Source: Promethearchaeota archaeon
Lineage (GTDB): Archaea > Asgardarchaeota > Lokiarchaeia > Sigyniarchaeales > SOKP01
Assembly (NCBI GenBank): GCA_013375475.1
Contig: JABXKD010000058.1
Location: 1 to 23,910, forward strand
Direction: 5' to 3'
Length of the DNA stretch: 23,910 nt
Positions 7,291-22,491 of this stretch are shown here, piece by piece. A program made the position numbers and the translations under genes. The notes beneath the pieces were generated by a model. The model did not search any database, was not told the origin of the DNA, and was given only the letters and a program-made list of their open reading frames with translations. Positions within the stretch are counted from its first letter, which is position 1. Each line of letters begins with the position of its first letter.

Positions 7291-8166
7291 TTATAAACTC
7301 CAGATTCTAATTTTTTTATCAGCAGCTCCCATTAACAGGGATTTACCGTCTGGAGAGAAACATAAGGAATCTACTCCTTTGGGTTTTACTTCAATTGTTT
7401 CTTGGAGCTCACCATCATTTATATTCCAGATTTGTGCTTTGTAATCAAAACCTATAACAATAATCTTCGAATCAGGTGAAATTACGTGAGGACGAGGGTA
7501 CTTAGTAGCAAATTGAACAGTTTTCAACAATTTCCAATTTTTAGGGTTCCATATTTTTAACGATTCAGATCCGATCGATATAAATAAATCTCCATTAGGT
7601 GTATAGCAGGCTCCAGAAACGACGATTTTGTGTTCGCTTACGCTTTTCAGTAGTTCCCCTGAGGGGATTTTCCAGAGATGAAAAGAATCTCCAAGACCTC
7701 CTCCTACCAAAATCTTTCCGTCCGGTGAAAACCTTACTGAAGTTACATTTCTTTCAAAAGCATTGATGGTAAAGAGCTCATTTCCATTAGCTGCATCCCA
7801 TAACTTAATTTTTCCATCATATGAGCCTGTAGCAATAAACTTAGAGTCAGGCGATATCTCTGCAGCTATGACTGTTTTTTTATGCCCTTTTAATGTATGC
7901 AGAACATCACCAGAGTCAAATTCCCATATTTTAGCAGTTGTATCAGTGGAACTAGTGGCAAATGTTAAACCCCCGGGCGCGATAGATATCGAATTCACAC
8001 TTTTAGAATGTTCTTCTAAAGTTTTAACTAGTTCAAAAGAGGGTAGTTTCCAATATTTCACTAAGTTATCCATGCCCGTAGATAATAGTATTGAACCATC
8101 TGGAGTAATTGCGAGACCTAATACATAATTTGTGTGAGCTTGGAATGTTTTTATTAATTTAAACAT
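7291..8166 (-). CDS. WD40-repeat protein (single ~7-bladed beta-propeller)
   Basis: Seven repeats of ~40-42 aa, e.g. HSKSVNSISIAPGG...SSTDTTAKIWE, GHKKTVIAAEISPDS...GSYDGKIKLWD and ADKKIRIWS. Confidence 0.95.
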   Translation of the reverse strand: MFKLIKTFQAHTNYVLGLAITPDGSILLSTGMDNLVKYWKLPSFELVKTLEEHSKSVNSISIAPGGLTFATSSTDTTAKIWEFDSGDVLHTLKGHKKTVIAAEISPDSKFIATGSYDGKIKLWDAANGNELFTINAFERNVTSVRFSPDGKILVGGGLGDSFHLWKIPSGELLKSVSEHKIVVSGACYTPNGDLFISIGSESLKIWNPKNWKLLKTVQFATKYPRPHVISPDSKIIVIGFDYKAQIWNINDGELQETIEVKPKGVDSLCFSPDGKSLLMGAADKKIRIWSL

Positions 8167-10023: not shown

Positions 10024-10527
10024 TTAAATTTCTCTAGTTATTTGGGATAAACTTTTTCTCATGGGAGGTTGTGGAATGGCCCCCTTTATATATCCCATAG
10101 GTAAGATAGTCAACAGATAATCAGATTCATCTAATCCTAGCATCTCCTTCACAACATCGCGCTCTAAAGCCCCAATCCAACAAGTACCTATTCCTAGCGA
10201 CCATGCCATTAACATCATGCTCATTGATACAAATGATGTATCTTGAATGTAATAGTAAGGATTTTCTTTAATTTTACCTACAATCGCGATTGCTAGAGGA
10301 GCTCTCTTTATATGCAGTCCATAAAAAGCTTTTTTTGAAATACTTCTTAACAGTTCCTTATCTCTAATAACTAAAAATTCCCAGGGTTGCTTATTAGAAG
10401 CACTTGGAGTCCATCTTCCCGCTTCTAAAATCATTTCAATTTCCTTTTCGGGTATCGGTTTATCGAGATACGACCTGATGCTCCTTCTTTCTTTTAAAAA
10501 CACCAAAAATTCTTCTGGGTTAATCAT
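10024..10527 (-). CDS. Nitroreductase family protein
   Basis: RRSIRSY, PSASNKQPWEF and AWSLGIGTCWIG. ATG at 10527 (MINPEE) preferred over the track's TTG at 10542. Confidence 0.93.
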   Translation of the reverse strand: MINPEEFLVFLKERRSIRSYLDKPIPEKEIEMILEAGRWTPSASNKQPWEFLVIRDKELLRSISKKAFYGLHIKRAPLAIAIVGKIKENPYYYIQDTSFVSMSMMLMAWSLGIGTCWIGALERDVVKEMLGLDESDYLLTILPMGYIKGAIPQPPMRKSLSQITREI

Positions 10528-10648
10528 AAAATAAATCAACAAGGATTATTATTTCTAATTAAAATTACAAAATCTAGATCTCTTTTAAACATAATTATAA
10601 TGAGTTATTAATCCTAAAAAGGAGTGGCTTAAGAAAGCTGTGCAATAA

Positions 10649-11902
10649 TTAATCTTTATTGTGATTAAAATAATCAGACTCAAGATTAGGGAAGATTTTT
10701 TTCTTTCTCCCATCACTCTTGAAATTGATTAGATTGAGATCCTTTAACTTATTGACATGATATTGAATAGTTTTGTGATCTACCTTAAAATGTTTTGTTA
10801 TTATGCTATTCCATAAACCTGGTTCTTTTTCTATCATTTCTAAAATCTCTAGCGTCAATTTGCTTTTACTTAACTGAAGATCAAGATTTGAAATTGGGTT
10901 TTTTTGGTAATACGGAAAGTAAGCGATAAAATTTCCAATTCGCTTTTTCCCTACAACTTTGTACGTTTCTAAAATATCAAGGTGCCAAACGAGATTACCC
11001 GCAGCTATTTCAGTTTTTCTTAACAACTCATTAAAATGAATTCCAGGTTCTTTGAGAATTAAGTCAATAATTTTGTTCCTGTTCTCGTTTTCTAAGACGT
11101 CCTCTAAGCTTAATCGATGCGCACCTTTTTCAATTGGAATAGTTCGAGTTTTTAAATATTGGAAATAATCCTTTTTTGAAATTAAAATAGCAAGTGAAGC
11201 AATTCCTACCACACCTACAATTAAAACAATTACTAAAATCCAATCGTCAAAAACTTTAGTAACTTCATAAAAAGTAACATAATATTCGGTGTCTACTTGT
11301 AGATTTGAGACGGAAGCTATTAAAGAAATTTCAGAACTTGATTCATTTAACTCCTCGATCGTATCAATAAGCACCCATGAATCTTGCGAAGGTTCATACA
11401 ACGCTAAGGAATAATCCAGATTAGGATTTAGCCCGTATAAAGATTTTTTAATGCTACTTACAGTTAAATGTTCTATAGTTGTGTTAGTTTTAAATCGAAG
11501 AATACAATTATACTTATATTGAAATTGATTATCTCCTCTTCTCGGTCCTTGAGGAGGTCTTGATATTCCAAAATTCTGCATTAAGGCTTTAGAAGTTATA
11601 TTGAGAGATATAGGGTTACTATTGTTAATTTGAAAAAAGATTTGACGGTTTTCAATATTGGATTCATATTCAATGTTAAGATCGATAAAAGAATCAGTGG
11701 AGATATCGAAAATTATGCTGTTATTAAACATGTATTTCACAGAGTCGTTAGGATTGACCTTATCATGAGTAGAAAATCCCGGAATATTTTCAGTTCTATA
11801 TGATAAAACTTGAGAAATTAGAATATTGAAATTAATGAATACTAATAATAGAATAAATATGCTGAATAATTTCGATCTGTTCTTTATTTTCAATTTAATC
11901 AT
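10649..11902 (-). CDS. Membrane-anchored transcriptional regulator: signal peptide/anchor, ~180-aa ectodomain, TM helix, cytoplasmic tandem winged-HTH (ArsR-like, HVO_0163-like)
   Basis: Basic-hydrophobic N-terminus; six N-x-S/T sequons in the ectodomain; TM WILVIVLIVGVVGIASLAILIS followed by KK; wHTH1 (NRNKIIDLILKEPGIHFNELLR...GNLVWHLDILE) and wHTH2 (EILEMIEKEPG...KTIQYHVNKLKDLNLI). Confidence 0.85.
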   Translation of the reverse strand: MIKLKIKNRSKLFSIFILLLVFINFNILISQVLSYRTENIPGFSTHDKVNPNDSVKYMFNNSIIFDISTDSFIDLNIEYESNIENRQIFFQINNSNPISLNITSKALMQNFGISRPPQGPRRGDNQFQYKYNCILRFKTNTTIEHLTVSSIKKSLYGLNPNLDYSLALYEPSQDSWVLIDTIEELNESSSEISLIASVSNLQVDTEYYVTFYEVTKVFDDWILVIVLIVGVVGIASLAILISKKDYFQYLKTRTIPIEKGAHRLSLEDVLENENRNKIIDLILKEPGIHFNELLRKTEIAAGNLVWHLDILETYKVVGKKRIGNFIAYFPYYQKNPISNLDLQLSKSKLTLEILEMIEKEPGLWNSIITKHFKVDHKTIQYHVNKLKDLNLINFKSDGRKKKIFPNLESDYFNHNKD

Positions 11903-11974
11903 ATATAATTTTTGATCGTTAGAATATATTTTTTAAAAATTAAAAAAAAATTATTATTTATATTAATTTATTAC

Positions 11975-12661
11975 CTACTTTCTCTTTTTTATGTAGAACA
12001 CTGAAGCGATTATTATTAGAGCAGCAACTCCGCCACCGATGGTGAATCCTAAGATTAACATAGTGTAATCAGGTAAGAGTATTGTCCATGTTGAAAAATG
12101 CGATACTTCAGCAGTTAGATAACCATCATCCACAGTTGTTGGTACGCAAACCCATTCTTCGGTTGCTTCGTTGTAATACGCAAATTGTCCAAATTGATTT
12201 TCATTTGTTGCTCTTATTCTTAATCTTGCCCGTGTAAAAGTTCCATCACATTCTATATCAATAACAAATCCTTCCTTATATTGGTATCGGTTGCGATTTC
12301 GTGTTTGATACATATTCCCCTTTACTAGCCCTAGTTGCGCCTGTTCTTCAGTACAAGTCATAGTCATTTGAAGATCGCCTGTACCTTCAATTTCAAGAGC
12401 AAAATCTTTAACCCCGATTCTTAAAGCTTCACATTCAAGGTCTAAATCTAAATTAACATTAGCTTCTACCCTTAATCGAGTTCTATTCCTAAATCGAAAC
12501 TGAGTTGCAATATTAGCTTCCACATGTGCTGATTTTGAGTCTGTAGGGACGTCAATGACTACATCGGGATCAGCAATCGCTACAACATTAAACGATGTGA
12601 CCGTCGAAAATAGGATCATTAGGAAAAAAGTGCCTAAGAGAATTTTACTTAATTTTTTCAT
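11975..12661 (-). CDS. Single-pass cell-surface protein with beta-rich ectodomain ending in a GPS/GAIN-like HFS motif
   Basis: Signal peptide MKKLSKILLGTFFLMILFS...; FAYYNEATEEWVC...LTAEVSHFSTWTILLP; C-terminal TM helix and KKRK tail. Confidence 0.8.
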   Translation of the reverse strand: MKKLSKILLGTFFLMILFSTVTSFNVVAIADPDVVIDVPTDSKSAHVEANIATQFRFRNRTRLRVEANVNLDLDLECEALRIGVKDFALEIEGTGDLQMTMTCTEEQAQLGLVKGNMYQTRNRNRYQYKEGFVIDIECDGTFTRARLRIRATNENQFGQFAYYNEATEEWVCVPTTVDDGYLTAEVSHFSTWTILLPDYTMLILGFTIGGGVAALIIIASVFYIKKRK

Positions 12662-12974
12662 GGTTTTTTTTCACTAAATTGTTTTAATTAATACAAGAAA
12701 ATGGCGTATAAAAAGGATTGAGGAATAACATTACCCGATTGAAAAAGGAAAAATTATACAATATTTTCTAAAAAACTGTACCCCAATTACATTTTTGGAT
12801 GGAGCAATAAAATCTTAAATTATGAAACATCTTAATCCTTAAGTTTTAATATAATAATTTTGAAGATATAATTATAACTTTAAAATATTACAAAAATATT
12901 AAAAAGAAATTCAGACTAAATTAATTTTAATAAGAAATATAACAAATTTTAATTTTAGAAATGGAGAGAAGCTA

Positions 12975-15230
12975 ATGAGCTTAAAAGAATTTACGAAAGA
13001 AATTTTCACGAGATATGGTTTCACGGAAGACCAAATTAATGTTTACATCGTTTACCTTAGAGTTCCAAGAGCCACATCGTCTGAAGTTTACCTTTCTTTA
13101 GCAGAAGAACATCCCGAGTTGACATACGAATCCGTTCTTGAAATTACTGATTGGCTAGTCGAAAAAGGCTTTCTCAAAAAAGTAACTGGGATTGTAGATA
13201 GATTCATTCCTTTAGAACCATTCTTTGAATTATATATTGGAGAATCCAAAATCTTTAGAGACGAAATTGCTAAAATCAAGGACTCAATCTTAGCAGATCA
13301 ATCAAATCGCTTTGAAAAATTAGAAGCTATTCAAGATAAAAGCATAAATGAGGTTGTAACTGCTGTTGATGATCAACTTAAGGCATTTTTTAATGATTCG
13401 GATACCAAAAACAATAATAAAAGAGACCGAATTAATAGCTCGAGAAATCGATTCACAGACACTTCAAAGACTTTGGAAGAAAATTTACATTCCATTATGG
13501 ATACGCTAAACTCTAATGTCAAAAATATTAGCGATACTAGAGTAAAAGAAAATGAATCCATGGTGAATAAAACTAAAGATGGAATTACCGGTTTAATATC
13601 AAATTTATTAGTAGATTTTACTCAAAGAGTAGAAGCACTTGAAAGGGAATTGAAAAGTGATTTGGATGATCACGTTGATAGGCATCAAACTATCGCTAAT
13701 GACCTGAAACCAAGAATGGAACAGATTCTCGAAAAATATCTCGAACGGATGGATAAAATAGTTGTTGATTTGAAAGAGAGAATCTCAAATCTATTGAAAG
13801 AACATTTAAGCCATCTTAAAAACACAACCGACACGCTTCAAACTAATTTGAAAGCTACTGTTGACGAAAGACACAGAGTATTAACGGATCAAACTAACGA
13901 TTTTAAAAGCATGACATTAACACTGATTGACAATCTATTAGAGCACGCAAATAGATTTACGGATTTTACTGGAGAAATGGCTAAAAAAGGCTTTTTCTGG
14001 ATGGGAAAGAAGAAAAAATACAAAGCAAGACATGAAACAACAATTCAAAATATATTAACATATACTGAACCAATGAAGGAGGATTTTACGACCACTAGCG
14101 AAGATTATATAAAGAACACAAGGGAAACAACAGATAGTTTAAAGACAGATGTTACCGATATAATGACAATTGAGAACGATAATGTTGTTACGGAAACCAC
14201 AGACCTTGATCATAAAGCTCAAGAAACAATCAACGTTCAATTAGAAACGCTGGCTACTGATATGGCTGGTGAAGTTGACACTACTTTACAAAGTGGTGTA
14301 AAAGATTGTTCTGATACAAGGATTAAATTGAAAGACTCTTTAGAAAATTCGCTTAAAACACATCACAGACAATACGACGAAGCCATTAATAAACATAAAG
14401 AGGAATCGTTAAGACATTATAATGAGTATGACTCTGATGTCAAGAGAATCAAAGAGGATTGGATTAGGGATCTCGATGACAAATTTATAGGCGGAAAAAG
14501 AGACACTTCAGATAAGATTACTGCTGAGATCAACTTATGGGGCGATGAATCAGCAGATATGGACAGGAATTTAAGTGAAATGTTAATAGATCATAAATCC
14601 AAATATGAAGAAACTGCGAAAACCTTACAAAATAGTCTTTCTACTACCACTCGAGATACTACTCAGAATATTAAAGATGCAATAGCAGATTTCACGCTTC
14701 AATTTATGAATTCTATTGACGACAGTACTGAGATTGCAGAAAAAAATGAAAGTAAACTAGGAGATATACACAAAGCCTCAAGTTCTATTCCAGAAATAAT
14801 GGACATTACTACTTGGCAAGTAATAGGACGAGACGCTTTAATAGCTGCTATAAAGGACGCTATTTATAGGGTTAAATCTTCCATCATTATTGTAATGCCT
14901 TATGTACTACCTGAGATTTTACAAGTTATAAGCGAATACGCCTTTCAGAAGAAAGCAGTGCGCTTTATGCTTACCTCACGCTTCGAAATGGGACAGTATG
15001 GCGATATCATCAGAAAAATGATGGGATTGGGCAACATTCAGTTCAGACAACTTAGTGGCGCAGGAGAATTCTTCGCACTCACTCGGGACGCAGAGGAAGT
15101 AATAATTGGTCCTGCAACCGACAAAGAAGGCGAAATGATAAGCGTTATCTCAAATCAAGCCGCGTTCAGTATTTTATATAGTCAGTTTATTGGGCCTATA
15201 TTCCAGGCTAACAGTCGCCCGATCAAGTAA
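12975..15230 (+). CDS. TrmB-like protein: N-terminal wHTH, ~520-aa coiled coil, C-terminal TrmB effector/PLD-like fold
   Basis: N-terminus YGFTEDQINVYIVYL...TSSEV...LVEKGFL...RFIPLEP (TrmB HTH pattern); C-terminus WQVIGRDAL...AIYRVKSSIIIVMP...TRDAEEVIIG (TrmB C-terminal pattern); amphipathic, nearly Pro-free middle. Confidence 0.75.
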   Translation: MSLKEFTKEIFTRYGFTEDQINVYIVYLRVPRATSSEVYLSLAEEHPELTYESVLEITDWLVEKGFLKKVTGIVDRFIPLEPFFELYIGESKIFRDEIAKIKDSILADQSNRFEKLEAIQDKSINEVVTAVDDQLKAFFNDSDTKNNNKRDRINSSRNRFTDTSKTLEENLHSIMDTLNSNVKNISDTRVKENESMVNKTKDGITGLISNLLVDFTQRVEALERELKSDLDDHVDRHQTIANDLKPRMEQILEKYLERMDKIVVDLKERISNLLKEHLSHLKNTTDTLQTNLKATVDERHRVLTDQTNDFKSMTLTLIDNLLEHANRFTDFTGEMAKKGFFWMGKKKKYKARHETTIQNILTYTEPMKEDFTTTSEDYIKNTRETTDSLKTDVTDIMTIENDNVVTETTDLDHKAQETINVQLETLATDMAGEVDTTLQSGVKDCSDTRIKLKDSLENSLKTHHRQYDEAINKHKEESLRHYNEYDSDVKRIKEDWIRDLDDKFIGGKRDTSDKITAEINLWGDESADMDRNLSEMLIDHKSKYEETAKTLQNSLSTTTRDTTQNIKDAIADFTLQFMNSIDDSTEIAEKNESKLGDIHKASSSIPEIMDITTWQVIGRDALIAAIKDAIYRVKSSIIIVMPYVLPEILQVISEYAFQKKAVRFMLTSRFEMGQYGDIIRKMMGLGNIQFRQLSGAGEFFALTRDAEEVIIGPATDKEGEMISVISNQAAFSILYSQFIGPIFQANSRPIK

Positions 15231-17085: not shown

Positions 17086-18369
17086 CTAATCCCATTTAGG
17101 CTTCTTTACGGAATTATCATCGTCTTCCGTGTGAATTCTCTTTAAGTCAATATCAGAGTAACCTGGTATGAGATTAAGGAGTCTTCTCATCGAATTTTCA
17201 ATGTCTTTAGATGATGTAACAAATCTGCCGACTATCAAAATATCTGCTCCCATTTCTAACGCAGAATTGGCGGTAGTTGGATCAATTCCACCAGCAACAG
17301 CAACTAAAACGCGGTCTCGACCGGATGCTAATTTCTGGTCTTTATATAATTCCTTAATCTTAGGAATTGCTGCCCATCTTGCTTTTTGAGCTGCGTTTGA
17401 GGATTCTGAACCAGCAGCTTGTTCCACGTCAATTGCTCGATGTAAAATGACAACATCAGGGATTTGTTTTAATTTGCTCAATTTTGCTACAGGATCATCT
17501 ACTTCCATTGTGTCAACAAAACCATAAATTCCCATACGATTAGTTTCTAACAGGAATTTATCTATTGAGGAAGCCGCCGCTAAACCACTTGCAACTGCAG
17601 CATCTGCAGTAGCGTCAAAGACAAAATCGACTTCTAATTTCCCTACATCCAAAGTTTTTAAATCGGCTACGATGAATTTTTGAGGTGCAAGCTCCCGAAT
17701 TTTTTTGATCGCTTCCATTCCGTACTTTTTAAGAAACGGTGTTCCAATTTCTAAGATAATCCTGTCACTCTTGGGTAATTGTTTTACTACTTTCATATGA
17801 TGTTCGATATTTGGATGATCCAAAGCTACTTGGATATATGGAGGTCTCCAAAGCCTTGGTACTTTCATTCCAGCAACAGGGTGCTTTGCTCGATCTTTAT
17901 CGTAGAAAATTTTGTCAATTGGAGGGTAATTCATTAAAGCTCTTTTAATCGCTAATTTTGCTGCGCTATAATTATATTGATATATTTTCCTATAATCCTT
18001 TGCATCGGGGTGAATAAAAACGCTTACGATGAGTACCCATTCATCCAGTTTATTCATTGGAATTATGTTTTCTTCTACTGCATCGGCTATTGCTTTAGCA
18101 ACGGCAGCCTGAGCAGGACCAAAAATCTTGTTAGCCTCTTCCATTTTTGAGACCGTTACTTTAGGGATAACAAGACTAATTGGTTTAGTAAGAAGATTTG
18201 GTCTGATACATGCGAGTAGCCCCCCATGGCCTATAGATGGTGAACTAAGAGCATTTGCAAACGATATCCCCACGGGACCATCTTTTGAACCAATTATTAA
18301 ATCTATATGAGCCATATTTTCTTCGGCCCCTAGCAGAGCTTCGCCGATAAAGTAGTCACTTTTTGCCAT
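17086..18369 (-). CDS. fae-hps: Bifunctional formaldehyde-activating enzyme / 3-hexulose-6-phosphate synthase
   Basis: Fae half: GEALLG...AHIDLIIG...GPVG, PNL..KP, FGPAQAAVAKA, VFIHP and YNY. HPS (OMPDC-like barrel) half: QVALD, LEIGTP, ADLKTLDVG, LHRAID and VAGGI...IVGR. Confidence 0.93.
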   Translation of the reverse strand: MAKSDYFIGEALLGAEENMAHIDLIIGSKDGPVGISFANALSSPSIGHGGLLACIRPNLLTKPISLVIPKVTVSKMEEANKIFGPAQAAVAKAIADAVEENIIPMNKLDEWVLIVSVFIHPDAKDYRKIYQYNYSAAKLAIKRALMNYPPIDKIFYDKDRAKHPVAGMKVPRLWRPPYIQVALDHPNIEHHMKVVKQLPKSDRIILEIGTPFLKKYGMEAIKKIRELAPQKFIVADLKTLDVGKLEVDFVFDATADAAVASGLAAASSIDKFLLETNRMGIYGFVDTMEVDDPVAKLSKLKQIPDVVILHRAIDVEQAAGSESSNAAQKARWAAIPKIKELYKDQKLASGRDRVLVAVAGGIDPTTANSALEMGADILIVGRFVTSSKDIENSMRRLLNLIPGYSDIDLKRIHTEDDDNSVKKPKWD

Positions 18370-21129: not shown

Positions 21130-21300
21130 TTCTATAGAACATAAAATCATTGAACATTTACATCCTAAAGGACATGGATTCGTAGGTTAAGAATTAATAC
21201 ACCTTTAACACTACTGGGTGGTTCAAGCACCCTCTATCCCCTATCCGCAAGGATTCAGGGACTCCTTTACACATGATGTTCCTCGAAGCGTTCACATCAG
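21130..21300 (-). ncRNA. Predicted omegaRNA (reRNA) of TnpB; guide ~UGAUUUUAUGUUCUAUAGAA
   Basis: Inferred from IS200/IS605 biology: the scaffold overlaps the tnpB 3' end and right end up to TCAA (21150), and the guide is the flanking 21149-21130. The 5' boundary is a guess. Confidence 0.5.
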
Positions 21301-22491
21301 CATTTAAGACCATTTCGCACTCTTTACAAACATACAGTCCTCGATATTTGCGGTTGGACTTGCGAACGACTCCACAAGAAGAGCACACTTGCGATGTATA
21401 TTCTTCGGTGATTCTCACGACTTTAATTCCCACCATCTCGGATTTATATTCAATTTGGTGAACAAGCTTTTGAAATGGGATTGAAACGAAATTTTGATTG
21501 TTTTTCTTTCCGATTTTAATCTTCTGTTTCCAGCCCTCGTTATAACCGATGATAATTGTTCCGATATCGTTAGAAATGCAATTATTGATGATCGTACGTG
21601 ATGCTTTATGGAAAAAATCTCTTATCTTATTGTTCCGCTTTCGATGAAGCCTTAAAATCCGACTCGTCGCGTCAGTGTTATTACATTTCTTGCTCGAGGA
21701 TTTATACTTGGCCAATTGTTTGTTATAGAATTGATTGATTGATTTCACGACACCGCCCTTGATAATCAATGGGTTATTTCCAATGTTATCTGATGAAGTT
21801 ACGATGTTCGTGAGTCCTAAATCAATTCCCATTACGTTTTTTTCGTTCAAGTGTAAGTCTCGTGGATTGTAATCGTAAATTAATTCGATGTTGTATCGAT
21901 CTCCGAAAGGAACAATGCGTACACCCTTCACATTTTTTAAGTATGTATTAATTTTTGGAAAACCTAATTTTTCCATTTTTTGCGTGAGTAAGATAACTCC
22001 ATCTCTCAACCGGCACTGTAAAGATGTGAAATAGAGGAGATTACGACCATTCTTGTGTTTGTAATGGGGGAGTTTTGGCATTCCTCTAAATTTAGATGGT
22101 TCTCGTTTCCATTGCTTCATTGCGTTAAAAAAGCTCTTAAAGTTTTTATCTACTTGTTTTAAGACTTGCTGTGGGGGATGTGAACCGCAAGTCTTCTGAA
22201 GCTCTTGATATGCACCATGAGATTTTAAGGTGTTCCATAACTCAATATAGCGAATCCAATGTCGATCCTTGAAAAATCGTTGTCGAACCTCATAGGTGGC
22301 TAAATTATACAAGTTTTTTGAAAGAAATGTGATGTTATCCAGTAGTCGTGAACGCTTAAGTTGCACTTGTTGAACGAGTTGCATTATTTTTACCATTAAT
22401 TATCTTGTATTTAAAAGAAGGGGGATTACTTGTTTTTTAATGGCAATATTCATCACGACCCTAAAGGAAGGTGTTTTTTTTGTGAAAATCA
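21150..22491 (-). mobile_element. Non-autonomous IS200/IS605-family element (tnpB only, IS1341-like)
   Basis: Right end (- strand): GAAT-CCATGTCCTTTAGGATG-TAAATGT-TCAA, ending at 21150. Left end: AAAA-CACCTTCCTTTAGGGTCGTG (~22476-22454). Both hairpins share CCTTTAGG. No tnpA in the window. Left boundary uncertain between 22484 and 22491. Confidence 0.85.
21194..22396 (-). CDS. tnpB: RNA-guided endonuclease TnpB
   Basis: LYN; QQVLKQVDKNFKSFF...PKLPHYK; RuvC-I GIDLG; YTSQVCSSCG...YVCKEC Zn finger; RuvC-III NADVNASRNI. True start may be 22384 (MQLVQ), 23 nt after a TTTTAAATA box. Confidence 0.95.
   Translation of the reverse strand: MVKIMQLVQQVQLKRSRLLDNITFLSKNLYNLATYEVRQRFFKDRHWIRYIELWNTLKSHGAYQELQKTCGSHPPQQVLKQVDKNFKSFFNAMKQWKREPSKFRGMPKLPHYKHKNGRNLLYFTSLQCRLRDGVILLTQKMEKLGFPKINTYLKNVKGVRIVPFGDRYNIELIYDYNPRDLHLNEKNVMGIDLGLTNIVTSSDNIGNNPLIIKGGVVKSINQFYNKQLAKYKSSSKKCNNTDATSRILRLHRKRNNKIRDFFHKASRTIINNCISNDIGTIIIGYNEGWKQKIKIGKKNNQNFVSIPFQKLVHQIEYKSEMVGIKVVRITEEYTSQVCSSCGVVRKSNRKYRGLYVCKECEMVLNADVNASRNIMCKGVPESLRIGDRGCLNHPVVLKVY

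Follow-up and report, generated by a model that had tools for sequence, protein, structure and literature searches.

Two adjacent genes in a 23,910-nucleotide stretch of a Promethearchaeota archaeon genome (GenBank assembly GCA_013375475.1, contig JABXKD010000058.1, positions 1 to 23,910; this whole stretch is called the window hereafter) encode a predicted small surface protein, P0001, and a membrane-bound transcription regulator, P0002. Both genes, and all features of the pair described below, lie on the minus strand: the open reading frame of P0001 (228 aa) occupies 11975..12661 and that of P0002 (417 aa) 10649..11902, with 72 bp between them (11903-11974). An initial annotation, made from the letters alone, had described these genes as a co-oriented pair with paralogous ectodomains in a likely Asgard archaeon, and the reading frame coordinates bear out the arrangement and the gap, while the names of the relatives place the source in the Loki group of the Asgard archaea.

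P0001 starts with a basic N-terminus and a hydrophobic segment (residues 1-29; 12575..12661), a hydrophobic stretch after MKKLSK that would be a signal peptide or a retained signal-anchor. It is followed by a beta-rich ectodomain (residues 30-199; 12065..12574), which profile matches, motif counts and the alignment A3 (see below) assign to a family resembling GAIN_B and MAIN (Microbial Autoproteolysis INducing) domains. This region closes in ...YLTAEVSHFSTWTILLPDYT and contains H188-F189-S190 (codons 12092..12100), a predicted autoproteolysis site. The protein ends in a transmembrane helix with a Gly-rich face (GFTIGGGVAAL), hydrophobic over residues 200-222, and a cytoplasmic KKRK stub (together residues 200-228; 11978..12064; helix 200-227 in the AlphaFold2 (AF2) model). 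G205 and G210 of the helix are invariant among orthologues. Both the HFS motif and the KKRK stub had been picked out initially, and both are present in the translation.

P0002 likewise begins with a basic N-terminus and a hydrophobic segment (residues 1-34), followed by an ectodomain (residues 35-220; 11243..11800), a transmembrane helix (residues 221-243; 11174..11242; AF2 helix 221-251), a juxtamembrane linker (SKKDYFQYLKTRTIPIEKGAHRL) with a first winged helix-turn-helix (wHTH) domain of the HVO_0163 N-terminal type (residues 244-335; 10898..11173), and a second, HTH_24/ArsR-like wHTH (residues 336-405; 10688..10897). Pfam confirms the tandem wHTH that had been read from the sequence, as both halves score above cut-off: PF24266 (HTH_HVO_0163_N) matches residues 272-330 with 57.1 bits (cut-off 31; E 1.9e-15) and PF13412 matches residues 348-392 with 36.5 bits (cut-off 21.9; E 3.5e-9), with PF01022 at E 1.4e-6. 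The order of the two domains is that of HVO_0163-type tandem wHTH proteins, and the presence of a hydrophobic helix (221-243) and a DNA-binding domain in one protein makes P0002 a transmembrane transcription regulator by definition. Besides the membrane helix that follows the ectodomain, both proteins have a long N-terminal hydrophobic helix in their AF2 models (2-21 in the low-confidence model of P0001 and 9-32 in P0002). Depending on whether this helix is removed as a signal peptide or stays as an anchor, each protein may cross the membrane once, as initially described, or twice.

The ectodomains of P0001 and P0002 are related in sequence. BLASTP aligns residues 37-187 of P0001 colinearly with residues 39-193 of P0002 (19% identity over 156 columns, 40.4 bits, E 2e-8 as a single comparison), and the Smith-Waterman score of the two ectodomains is 94, compared with a mean of 29 for shuffled sequences (standard deviation 4.8, maximum 58) and 32 for a reversed control; none of 2000 shuffles reached 94, whichever partner was shuffled. 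Alignment of the orthologue sets of the two proteins with hhalign (A1 for P0001, A2 for P0002) gives a probability of 93.9% (E 1.6e-7). When A1 is replaced by A3, an alignment of 43 diverse small-protein relatives of P0001 that includes no regulator rows, the probability is 99.0% (E 7.5e-18, 188 columns), and the pairwise comparison that the initial annotation had proposed as a check thus returns homology. Searched against the 10,690 frames of the window's own genome, the A3 model selects exactly three proteins, P0001, a third paralogue and P0002 (E 1.5e-17), and a model of the P0002 ectodomain recovers P0001 from the same frames at E 8.9e-8. By these sequence comparisons the two ectodomains are homologous.

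The alignment also defines what P0002 has lost. Four blocks had initially been matched by eye, of which the first three agree with the alignments and the fourth (YLTAEVSHFSTW versus SLIASVSNLQVD) is about 7 residues off register: hhalign places H188-F189-S190-T191-W192 of P0001 on Y207-Y208-V209-T210-F211 of P0002, not on NLQVD. The absence of HFS from the second protein is nonetheless real, the corresponding position being Y207-Y208-V209 (codons 11276..11284). Among 34 regulator sequences Y207 and T210 are invariant and the HFS position is YY(V/I). Because both His and Ser are lost there, self-cleavage of the GAIN type is excluded for P0002, and its ectodomain is, from the alignments, an uncuttable, decayed copy of the P0001 domain type. 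An AF2 model of the P0002 ectodomain is all-beta and largely confident (block values of the predicted local distance difference test (pLDDT) of 67-92 over residues 41-210, mostly 84-92), and its last hairpin (strands 191-201 and 206-216) is equivalent to the hairpin predicted to carry HFS in P0001.

In P0001 and its relatives the motif is retained at great divergence. A word-indexed search finds 279 relatives of P0001 at E<=0.01, mostly from Loki/Promethearchaeota metagenome-assembled genomes; the 120 matches listed show 70-93% identity over 94-100% of the query, and most are full length. A profile search of 1.84 billion representative proteins returns 125 matches, most of which are single-domain proteins of ~220-260 aa built in the same way. 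All of the 29 P0001 orthologues retain HFS, and among the 43 diverse relatives, whose mean column identity is 20%, H188 is the only invariant column, with W160 and S190 each retained in at least 90%. A residue that alone is invariant at such low identity has the signature of a catalytic one. Over the wider family, 124 of the 135 domain matches that cover the site (105 proteins) read H-x-S/T (HFS 101, HFT 11, HLS 8, HYS 2 and HLT 2). In several relatives (P0245, P0248, P0251, P0254, P0309, P0314, P0327 and P0328) the HFS domain is repeated in tandem, two to four times, ahead of one C-terminal membrane anchor, and almost all repeats retain an H(F/L)S motif, with HFSIR in one repeat of P0245. Faint matches of P0001 to DUF5803 (E 0.064) and TamB (E 0.14) were rejected as chance, and Pfam and NCBIfam give nothing above cut-off.

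More distant matches connect this family to bacterial surface proteins and to the GPS motif. In the search of 1.84 billion proteins the A1 profile matches P0332 (E 5.9e-6), which consists of Big_2, Shr-like and Fn3-associated domains followed by SLH repeats, and P0342 (E 4.6e-5), in which Flg_new, GLUG and Cadherin-like domains precede the SLH repeats; in both the match lies just before these repeats, an arrangement that the published account of MAIN proteins also gives. A further match, P0338, passes the Pfam GPS model at the same site with 27.8 bits (cut-off 22.5). The P0001 family, the SLH-anchored bacterial proteins and the GPS-positive P0338 have in common the pattern (Y/W)YDE..(E/K)W..V......G.(L/I).(A/V)....HF(S/T).(W/F/Y). 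Structural prediction adds a hint, not proof, of a GAIN_B-like fold: strands 181-186 and 191-195 flank S-H-F-S in the P0001 model (mean pLDDT 43.8), and a Foldseek search with this low-confidence model places 4dlo_B at rank 2 (E 7.8e-3, TM-score 0.38 on the query), with 9mqr_A, 8oek, 4dlo_A and 8vy2_A also within rank 29 of the best 50 rows (GAIN entries at E 0.008-0.08, from four adhesion GPCRs). A cut between F and S of HFS has been demonstrated by Edman data in YfkN of Bacillus subtilis, according to a preprint of which a part was available (Brogan & Rudner, bioRxiv 10.64898/2026.05.12.724683), and the predicted F189/S190 cut in P0001 is placed by analogy to it. Through its motif and its distant relatives P0001 fits the published description of MAIN/GAIN-like autoproteolytic domains, and we take it to be a stand-alone GAIN_B/MAIN-type domain that is probably self-cutting.

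The regulator is conserved most strongly in its output half. P0002 has 203 relatives at E<=0.01, and among its orthologues mean identity is highest in the first wHTH (89%) and the linker (88%) and lowest in the ectodomain (56%). The unit of transmembrane helix and HVO_0163-type tandem wHTH is also reused on other, unannotated N-terminal regions in related genomes (241 to 843 aa), and a metagenome locus joins it to a protein of 1281 aa that combines FG-GAP repeats with He_PIG, cadherin-like and PKD domains (such proteins lie at L045:111-3956 (+), L056:653-3184, L057:700-5348, L059:390-2483 and L058:467-1192). From this reuse, the unit appears to behave as a general output module for surface sensors. 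In two related genomes the regulator next to an intact P0001 orthologue is interrupted by two in-frame stops or split into two matches (G273:C206:2449-3390 and G291:C43:10405-11762), which may reflect occasional decay of the regulator or assembly errors.

The two genes are almost always found together, as expected in the initial annotation, which had suggested a survey of Asgard gene neighbourhoods. Of 36 loci fetched with the P0001 profile, 30 encode the orthologous short form, and the regulator lies directly downstream on the same strand in 29 of them, the remaining one being cut by a contig end. An even sample of 301 genomes of the phylum included 68 from the family of the window and 7 from a sister family of the same order. 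P0001-type matches were found in 60 of the 68 and in all 7, with only weak C-terminal matches elsewhere, and regulator matches (E <= 1e-40) in 63 of the 68 and in all 7, three of the 63 having only a short paralogue. The pair is adjacent by coordinates, with both matches on one contig and strand and no more than ~740 nt apart, in 59 of 60 genomes of the family and 7 of 7 of the sister family, together 66 of 67, counts that are not independent given that the sampled genomes are kin. The exception (G201) has a long paralogue only, with a regulator on another contig. Eight genomes of the family lack both genes, but this is uninformative, since neighbouring genes drop out of draft assemblies jointly. 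Adjacency and orientation hold down to ~45% protein identity, and the pair is also present in more distant lineages (the metagenome loci L042 and L046, and L060). As judged from these genomes, the two genes form a module that is conserved within one order of the Loki-type Asgard archaea.

The domain and the output module also occur on one polypeptide. Among the 125 matches of the P0001 profile, four carry the wHTH module: P0346 and P0351, which lack the His, and P0256 and P0306, in which a transmembrane helix connects an intact HFS domain with the tandem wHTH. When the ectodomains are placed in a quick tree, 12 His-less regulator rows fall on one side of a branch (SH-aLRT 93), while P0256 is sister to a small protein (support 100) and P0306 lies within the HFS group, both outside the His-less regulator clade. 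This suggests that the HFS domain has been joined repeatedly to the wHTH output module. A search for further HFS-bearing regulators with the P0306 ectodomain returned only P0306.

A conserved element precedes the P0001 gene. A candidate operator of 17 nt, TTATTCCTCAATCCTTT (12712-12728, minus strand), stands 67 nt ahead of the P0001 start and abuts, on its 3' side, the TATA-like TTATACGC (12704-12711, minus strand). The identical 17-mer stands at -64 to -68 in 25 of 30 P0001 upstream regions, including lineages with only ~46-60% protein identity; of the other five, one has no such element and four differ from it at 3 positions (three of these variants at -56 to -67, the fourth at -171). A second copy of the core, CTTAATCCTT then TTTTAATA (12831..12851, plus strand), was located by a genome pattern scan and inspection of the sequence, and faces the divergent gene of a 751-aa coiled-coil protein (12975..15230, plus strand). 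This distal motif (CTTAATCCTT-type) is present in 19 of 30 upstream regions at a variable distance from P0001. The 751-aa protein, for which Pfam returned no family above cut-off, has copies of 73-98% identity beside the pair in 23 of 36 loci, is more conserved than the pair itself and is possibly co-regulated with it. The third paralogue of P0001 (279-309 aa; G000 contig C47:2222-3148 on the minus strand, L032:3995-4924 and L025:1077-1916) has an insert of ~50-80 residues of metallothionein-like CxC/CxCxC repeats within the domain, V/I-L-S in place of HFS, and no adjacent regulator. Its promoter has the core (..TTATACCTTAATCCTTTTTAT..) and a TATA-like box ~59-66 nt before the start, both in its own genome and at all 6 other loci, where two copies of the core carry one mismatch. 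Genome-wide, the exact 13-nt core of the 17-nt element is unique, its one-mismatch form is not enriched (16 sites versus 18 for a control), and there is no regulon signal beyond the three promoters of P0001, the 751-aa gene and the third paralogue.

We propose that these parts form one system, and give the following arrangement as a whole an even chance of being right: P0001 would cut itself and stay assembled on the membrane, P0002 would act as a membrane-bound regulator, the two would be coupled, and the promoter element would be the probable DNA target. P0001 would sit on the outer face of the membrane, held by its C-terminal helix, and would most likely cut between F189 and S190, the pieces remaining joined through the beta-sheet. 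The ectodomain of P0002, as a decayed copy of the same domain, would be the sensor, and P0002 would detect, by contacts between the ectodomains or the transmembrane segments, whether P0001 is intact, pulled apart or bound to a ligand. The cytoplasmic tandem wHTH would, to judge from its family, bind DNA from the membrane, acting on the invariant 17-nt element before the P0001 promoter as well as on its relatives upstream of the divergent 751-aa gene and of the Cys-rich third paralogue. A more specific form of this proposal, which we put forward tentatively and regard as doubtful, is mechanosensing or ligand-sensing of the GAIN type that ends in transcription: self-cleaved P0001 would be a breakable sensor whose dissociation or rearrangement is sensed by the dead domain, or by the transmembrane helix, of P0002, and P0002 would in turn switch a small CTYAATCCTT-TATA regulon that comprises the locus of the pair, the neighbouring 751-aa gene and the paralogue rich in Cys.

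GAIN domains are a hallmark of adhesion GPCRs. If the sensing form of the proposal is true, a signalling output would for the first time be tied to a GAIN-like domain from microbes, and tethered-agonist signalling would have a forerunner made of two proteins, in a pathway from sensing to transcription that would operate in the prokaryotes closest to eukaryotes. A minimal stand-alone GAIN-like member next to an Asgard membrane transcription regulator with a dead copy may in itself link the domain type to gene control. Should the pair cooperate, it would be a simple, testable system in which a self-cleaving surface domain passes information into the cell, and it would be relevant to whether signalling of this kind arose before eukaryotes. 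A concrete DNA probe is available in the invariant 17-nt promoter element.

Several of the observations in this and the following two paragraphs weigh against a coupled, self-cleaving pair. The alternative that survives best, possible though on the unlikely side, is that P0001 and P0002 are tandem duplicates that no longer cooperate. P0001 would then be a small MAIN-type surface protein serving in adhesion or as a force-breakable tether, and P0002 an independent one-component membrane regulator that senses its own ligand, with adjacency reflecting control of the neighbour by the regulator or mere descent; tandem duplicates can stay adjacent without physical interaction. The 72-bp gap (11903..11974, minus strand) contains nine consecutive T and then AT-rich, TATA-like sequence, which would be a terminator or attenuator and possibly a promoter of P0002 itself, and a run of 8-11 T followed by AT-rich sequence separates the genes in 23 of 23 orthologous loci examined. 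Because this arrangement resembles an archaeal terminator or attenuator with a second promoter, separate transcripts are possible and a fixed 1:1 co-transcript is doubtful. In addition, the regulator of P0002 type at L043 has no detectable small partner in 3.1 kb upstream, the third paralogue has the same promoter element and sits elsewhere without a regulator, the output module serves many unrelated ectodomains, and the available part of the MAIN preprint reports no signalling role for these domains (10.64898/2026.05.12.724683). The promoter element may serve a factor other than P0002, and since the 10-mer core CTYAATCCTT is not enriched genome-wide (33 matches versus 63 for a control), the case for the element rests on position and conservation, not on counts. 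Against independent duplicates stand the conserved adjacency and orientation (29 of 30 loci, 66 of 67 sampled genomes and the distant metagenome lineages) and the fusions of HFS-bearing domains to the same wHTH module in P0256 and P0306, although these fused forms are each one cluster, on one and two contigs, and may be rare recombinants or assembly chimeras.

It is also conceivable, but we think quite improbable, that HFS is kept for folding or binding only and is never cut, and that both ectodomains are ordinary beta-sandwich sensors, possibly of another HFS-bearing fold such as ZU5. The Pfam GPS model gives no row on P0001 at E<=1, and no Pfam family reaches its cut-off on P0001 or the other 42 relatives; GPS is absent from the 25 of 75 families listed, none of which matches more than 2 of the 43. 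Against PDB sequences, the A1 and A3 profiles find only chance-level rows (E >= 0.4). The P0001 model, which was folded with close orthologues only, is poor, its Foldseek matches are weak, with none at E<=0.001, and the best 50 Foldseek rows for the good P0002 model contain no GAIN entry, consisting of wHTH proteins and weak jelly-roll-like matches. His is missing from 11 of the 135 family domain matches, so the fold tolerates loss of the motif. In the ESM Atlas the nearest clusters to P0001 are its own family and unnamed archaeal ones, with PGF-CTERM, Gram_pos_anchor and ZU5 rows at chance level (0.76-0.84), the single ZU5 row scoring 0.76. Set against these points are the catalytic-type conservation of His, the flanking pattern common to SLH-anchored bacterial proteins and a GPS-positive protein, and the position of HFS one predicted strand before the membrane, as in GAIN, where ZU5-UPA would add a further domain. 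ZU5/FIIND-type autoproteolysis is itself not borne out, as there is no ZU5 Pfam match and HFS is followed by only one strand and a transmembrane helix, with no UPA domain; no ZU5 entry occurs in the best 50 Foldseek rows for either P0001 or P0002.

The version offered in the initial annotation, in which cleaved P0001 releases its outer fragment as a diffusible ligand or co-sensor detected by non-cleavable P0002, draws on the same motif and family, ectodomain paralogy and gene linkage, but is very improbable in that GAIN/MAIN fragments are described as staying associated after cleavage (10.64898/2026.05.12.724683, in the part available), P0001 has no passenger domain to release, and its N-terminal hydrophobic segment is its most conserved part, suggesting a retained anchor. 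Two of these features also complicate the coupled, self-cleaving pair that we prefer. The N-terminal segment has a mean pairwise identity of 93.2% among P0001 orthologues, compared with 74% for the ectodomain, which is unexpected for a cleaved signal peptide, and the N-terminal fragment may thus remain membrane-held. The ectodomain is moreover the only domain between this segment and the transmembrane helix. Across the wider P0001 family the N-terminal hydrophobic segment is the least conserved part (17%).

Downstream of the regulator, 24 of 36 loci retain a nitroreductase-family gene (window 10024-10542, minus strand), in some cases beyond intervening genes. No protease gene was found among the neighbours of the pair, which are housekeeping or unrelated genes. 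The window also encodes a 291-aa WD40 beta-propeller protein (7291-8166, minus strand), Fae-Hps, a formaldehyde-activating enzyme fused to an OMP-decarboxylase-family domain (17086-18369, minus strand), and a TnpB/OrfB_IS605-type protein with a Cas12f-like TNB domain (21194-22396, minus strand).

The pair had been said initially not to be a described system, which is so for the pairing and not for its components: both the MAIN domain type and transmembrane transcription regulators are in print. The parts belong to known kinds, and the pairing, the dead-copy sensor and the conserved promoter element were not found in the literature searched. No publication linking MAIN/GAIN-like domains to a transcription regulator or to Asgard archaea was found, although the supplementary tables of the MAIN preprint (15,000 proteins) may include the family.

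MAIN domains are the closest relatives in description. The available part of the preprint presents them as microbial relatives of the GAIN_B subdomain of adhesion GPCRs, for example in YfkN, that are extracytoplasmic, lie beside an anchor and cleave themselves between F and S of HFS, the fragments remaining associated; the proteins combine adhesion or enzyme domains, a MAIN domain and a wall anchor, average 158 kDa, and in this part of the preprint have no signalling associated with the anchored fragment (10.64898/2026.05.12.724683). P0001 is like them in its extracytoplasmic beta-rich domain with H-hydrophobic-S/T before the predicted last strand, directly N-terminal to a surface anchor, and its profile reaches SLH-anchored bacterial multidomain proteins with HF(S/T)(K/T)(F/Y). 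Unlike the MAIN proteins so described, P0001 is a stand-alone protein of 228 aa without an adhesion or enzyme passenger, is anchored by a transmembrane helix instead of sortase or SLH, and is paired with a regulator bearing a dead copy of the domain. With the GAIN/GPS region of adhesion GPCRs (PF01825; 4dlo, 8oek, 8vy2) it has in common HX(S/T), which in P0001 would likewise lie in the final beta-hairpin, with a single strand, at the Stachel position, between the motif and the membrane. It differs in lacking the GAIN_A helical subdomain and the seven-transmembrane (7TM) domain and in not scoring with Pfam GPS, and the output here would be a separate DNA-binding protein, not a G protein.

Small membrane proteins encoded next to a membrane-bound regulator are familiar from ToxR/ToxS, in which the neighbour modulates the regulator. 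Compared with ToxR, the topology of P0002 is reversed, with the sensor N-terminal and outside and the wHTH C-terminal; the wHTH of P0002 is an archaeal HVO_0163-type tandem, and its partner P0001 is a paralogue of the sensor with a self-cleavage motif. More generally, P0002 resembles the transmembrane transcription regulators surveyed by Demey et al. (2023; PMC10269533): it has one or two membrane spans and a DNA-binding domain, and could control transcription from the membrane.

A prokaryotic precedent for an extracytoplasmic self-cleaving domain that governs transcription across the membrane is provided by RsgI anti-sigma factors, which, in the part of the work available, combine autoproteolytic SEAL domains with regulated intramembrane proteolysis (bioRxiv 10.1101/2023.06.27.546760; PMC10328401). 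The fused proteins P0256 and P0306 would come nearest to this arrangement. As far as that part describes them, RsgI proteins differ from the pair in fold and cleavage motif, which are SEA-like and unrelated, and in sequestering a sigma factor, whereas a regulator of the P0002 type would bind DNA itself; in the archaeal module, moreover, separate polypeptides usually carry the cleavable domain and the regulator.

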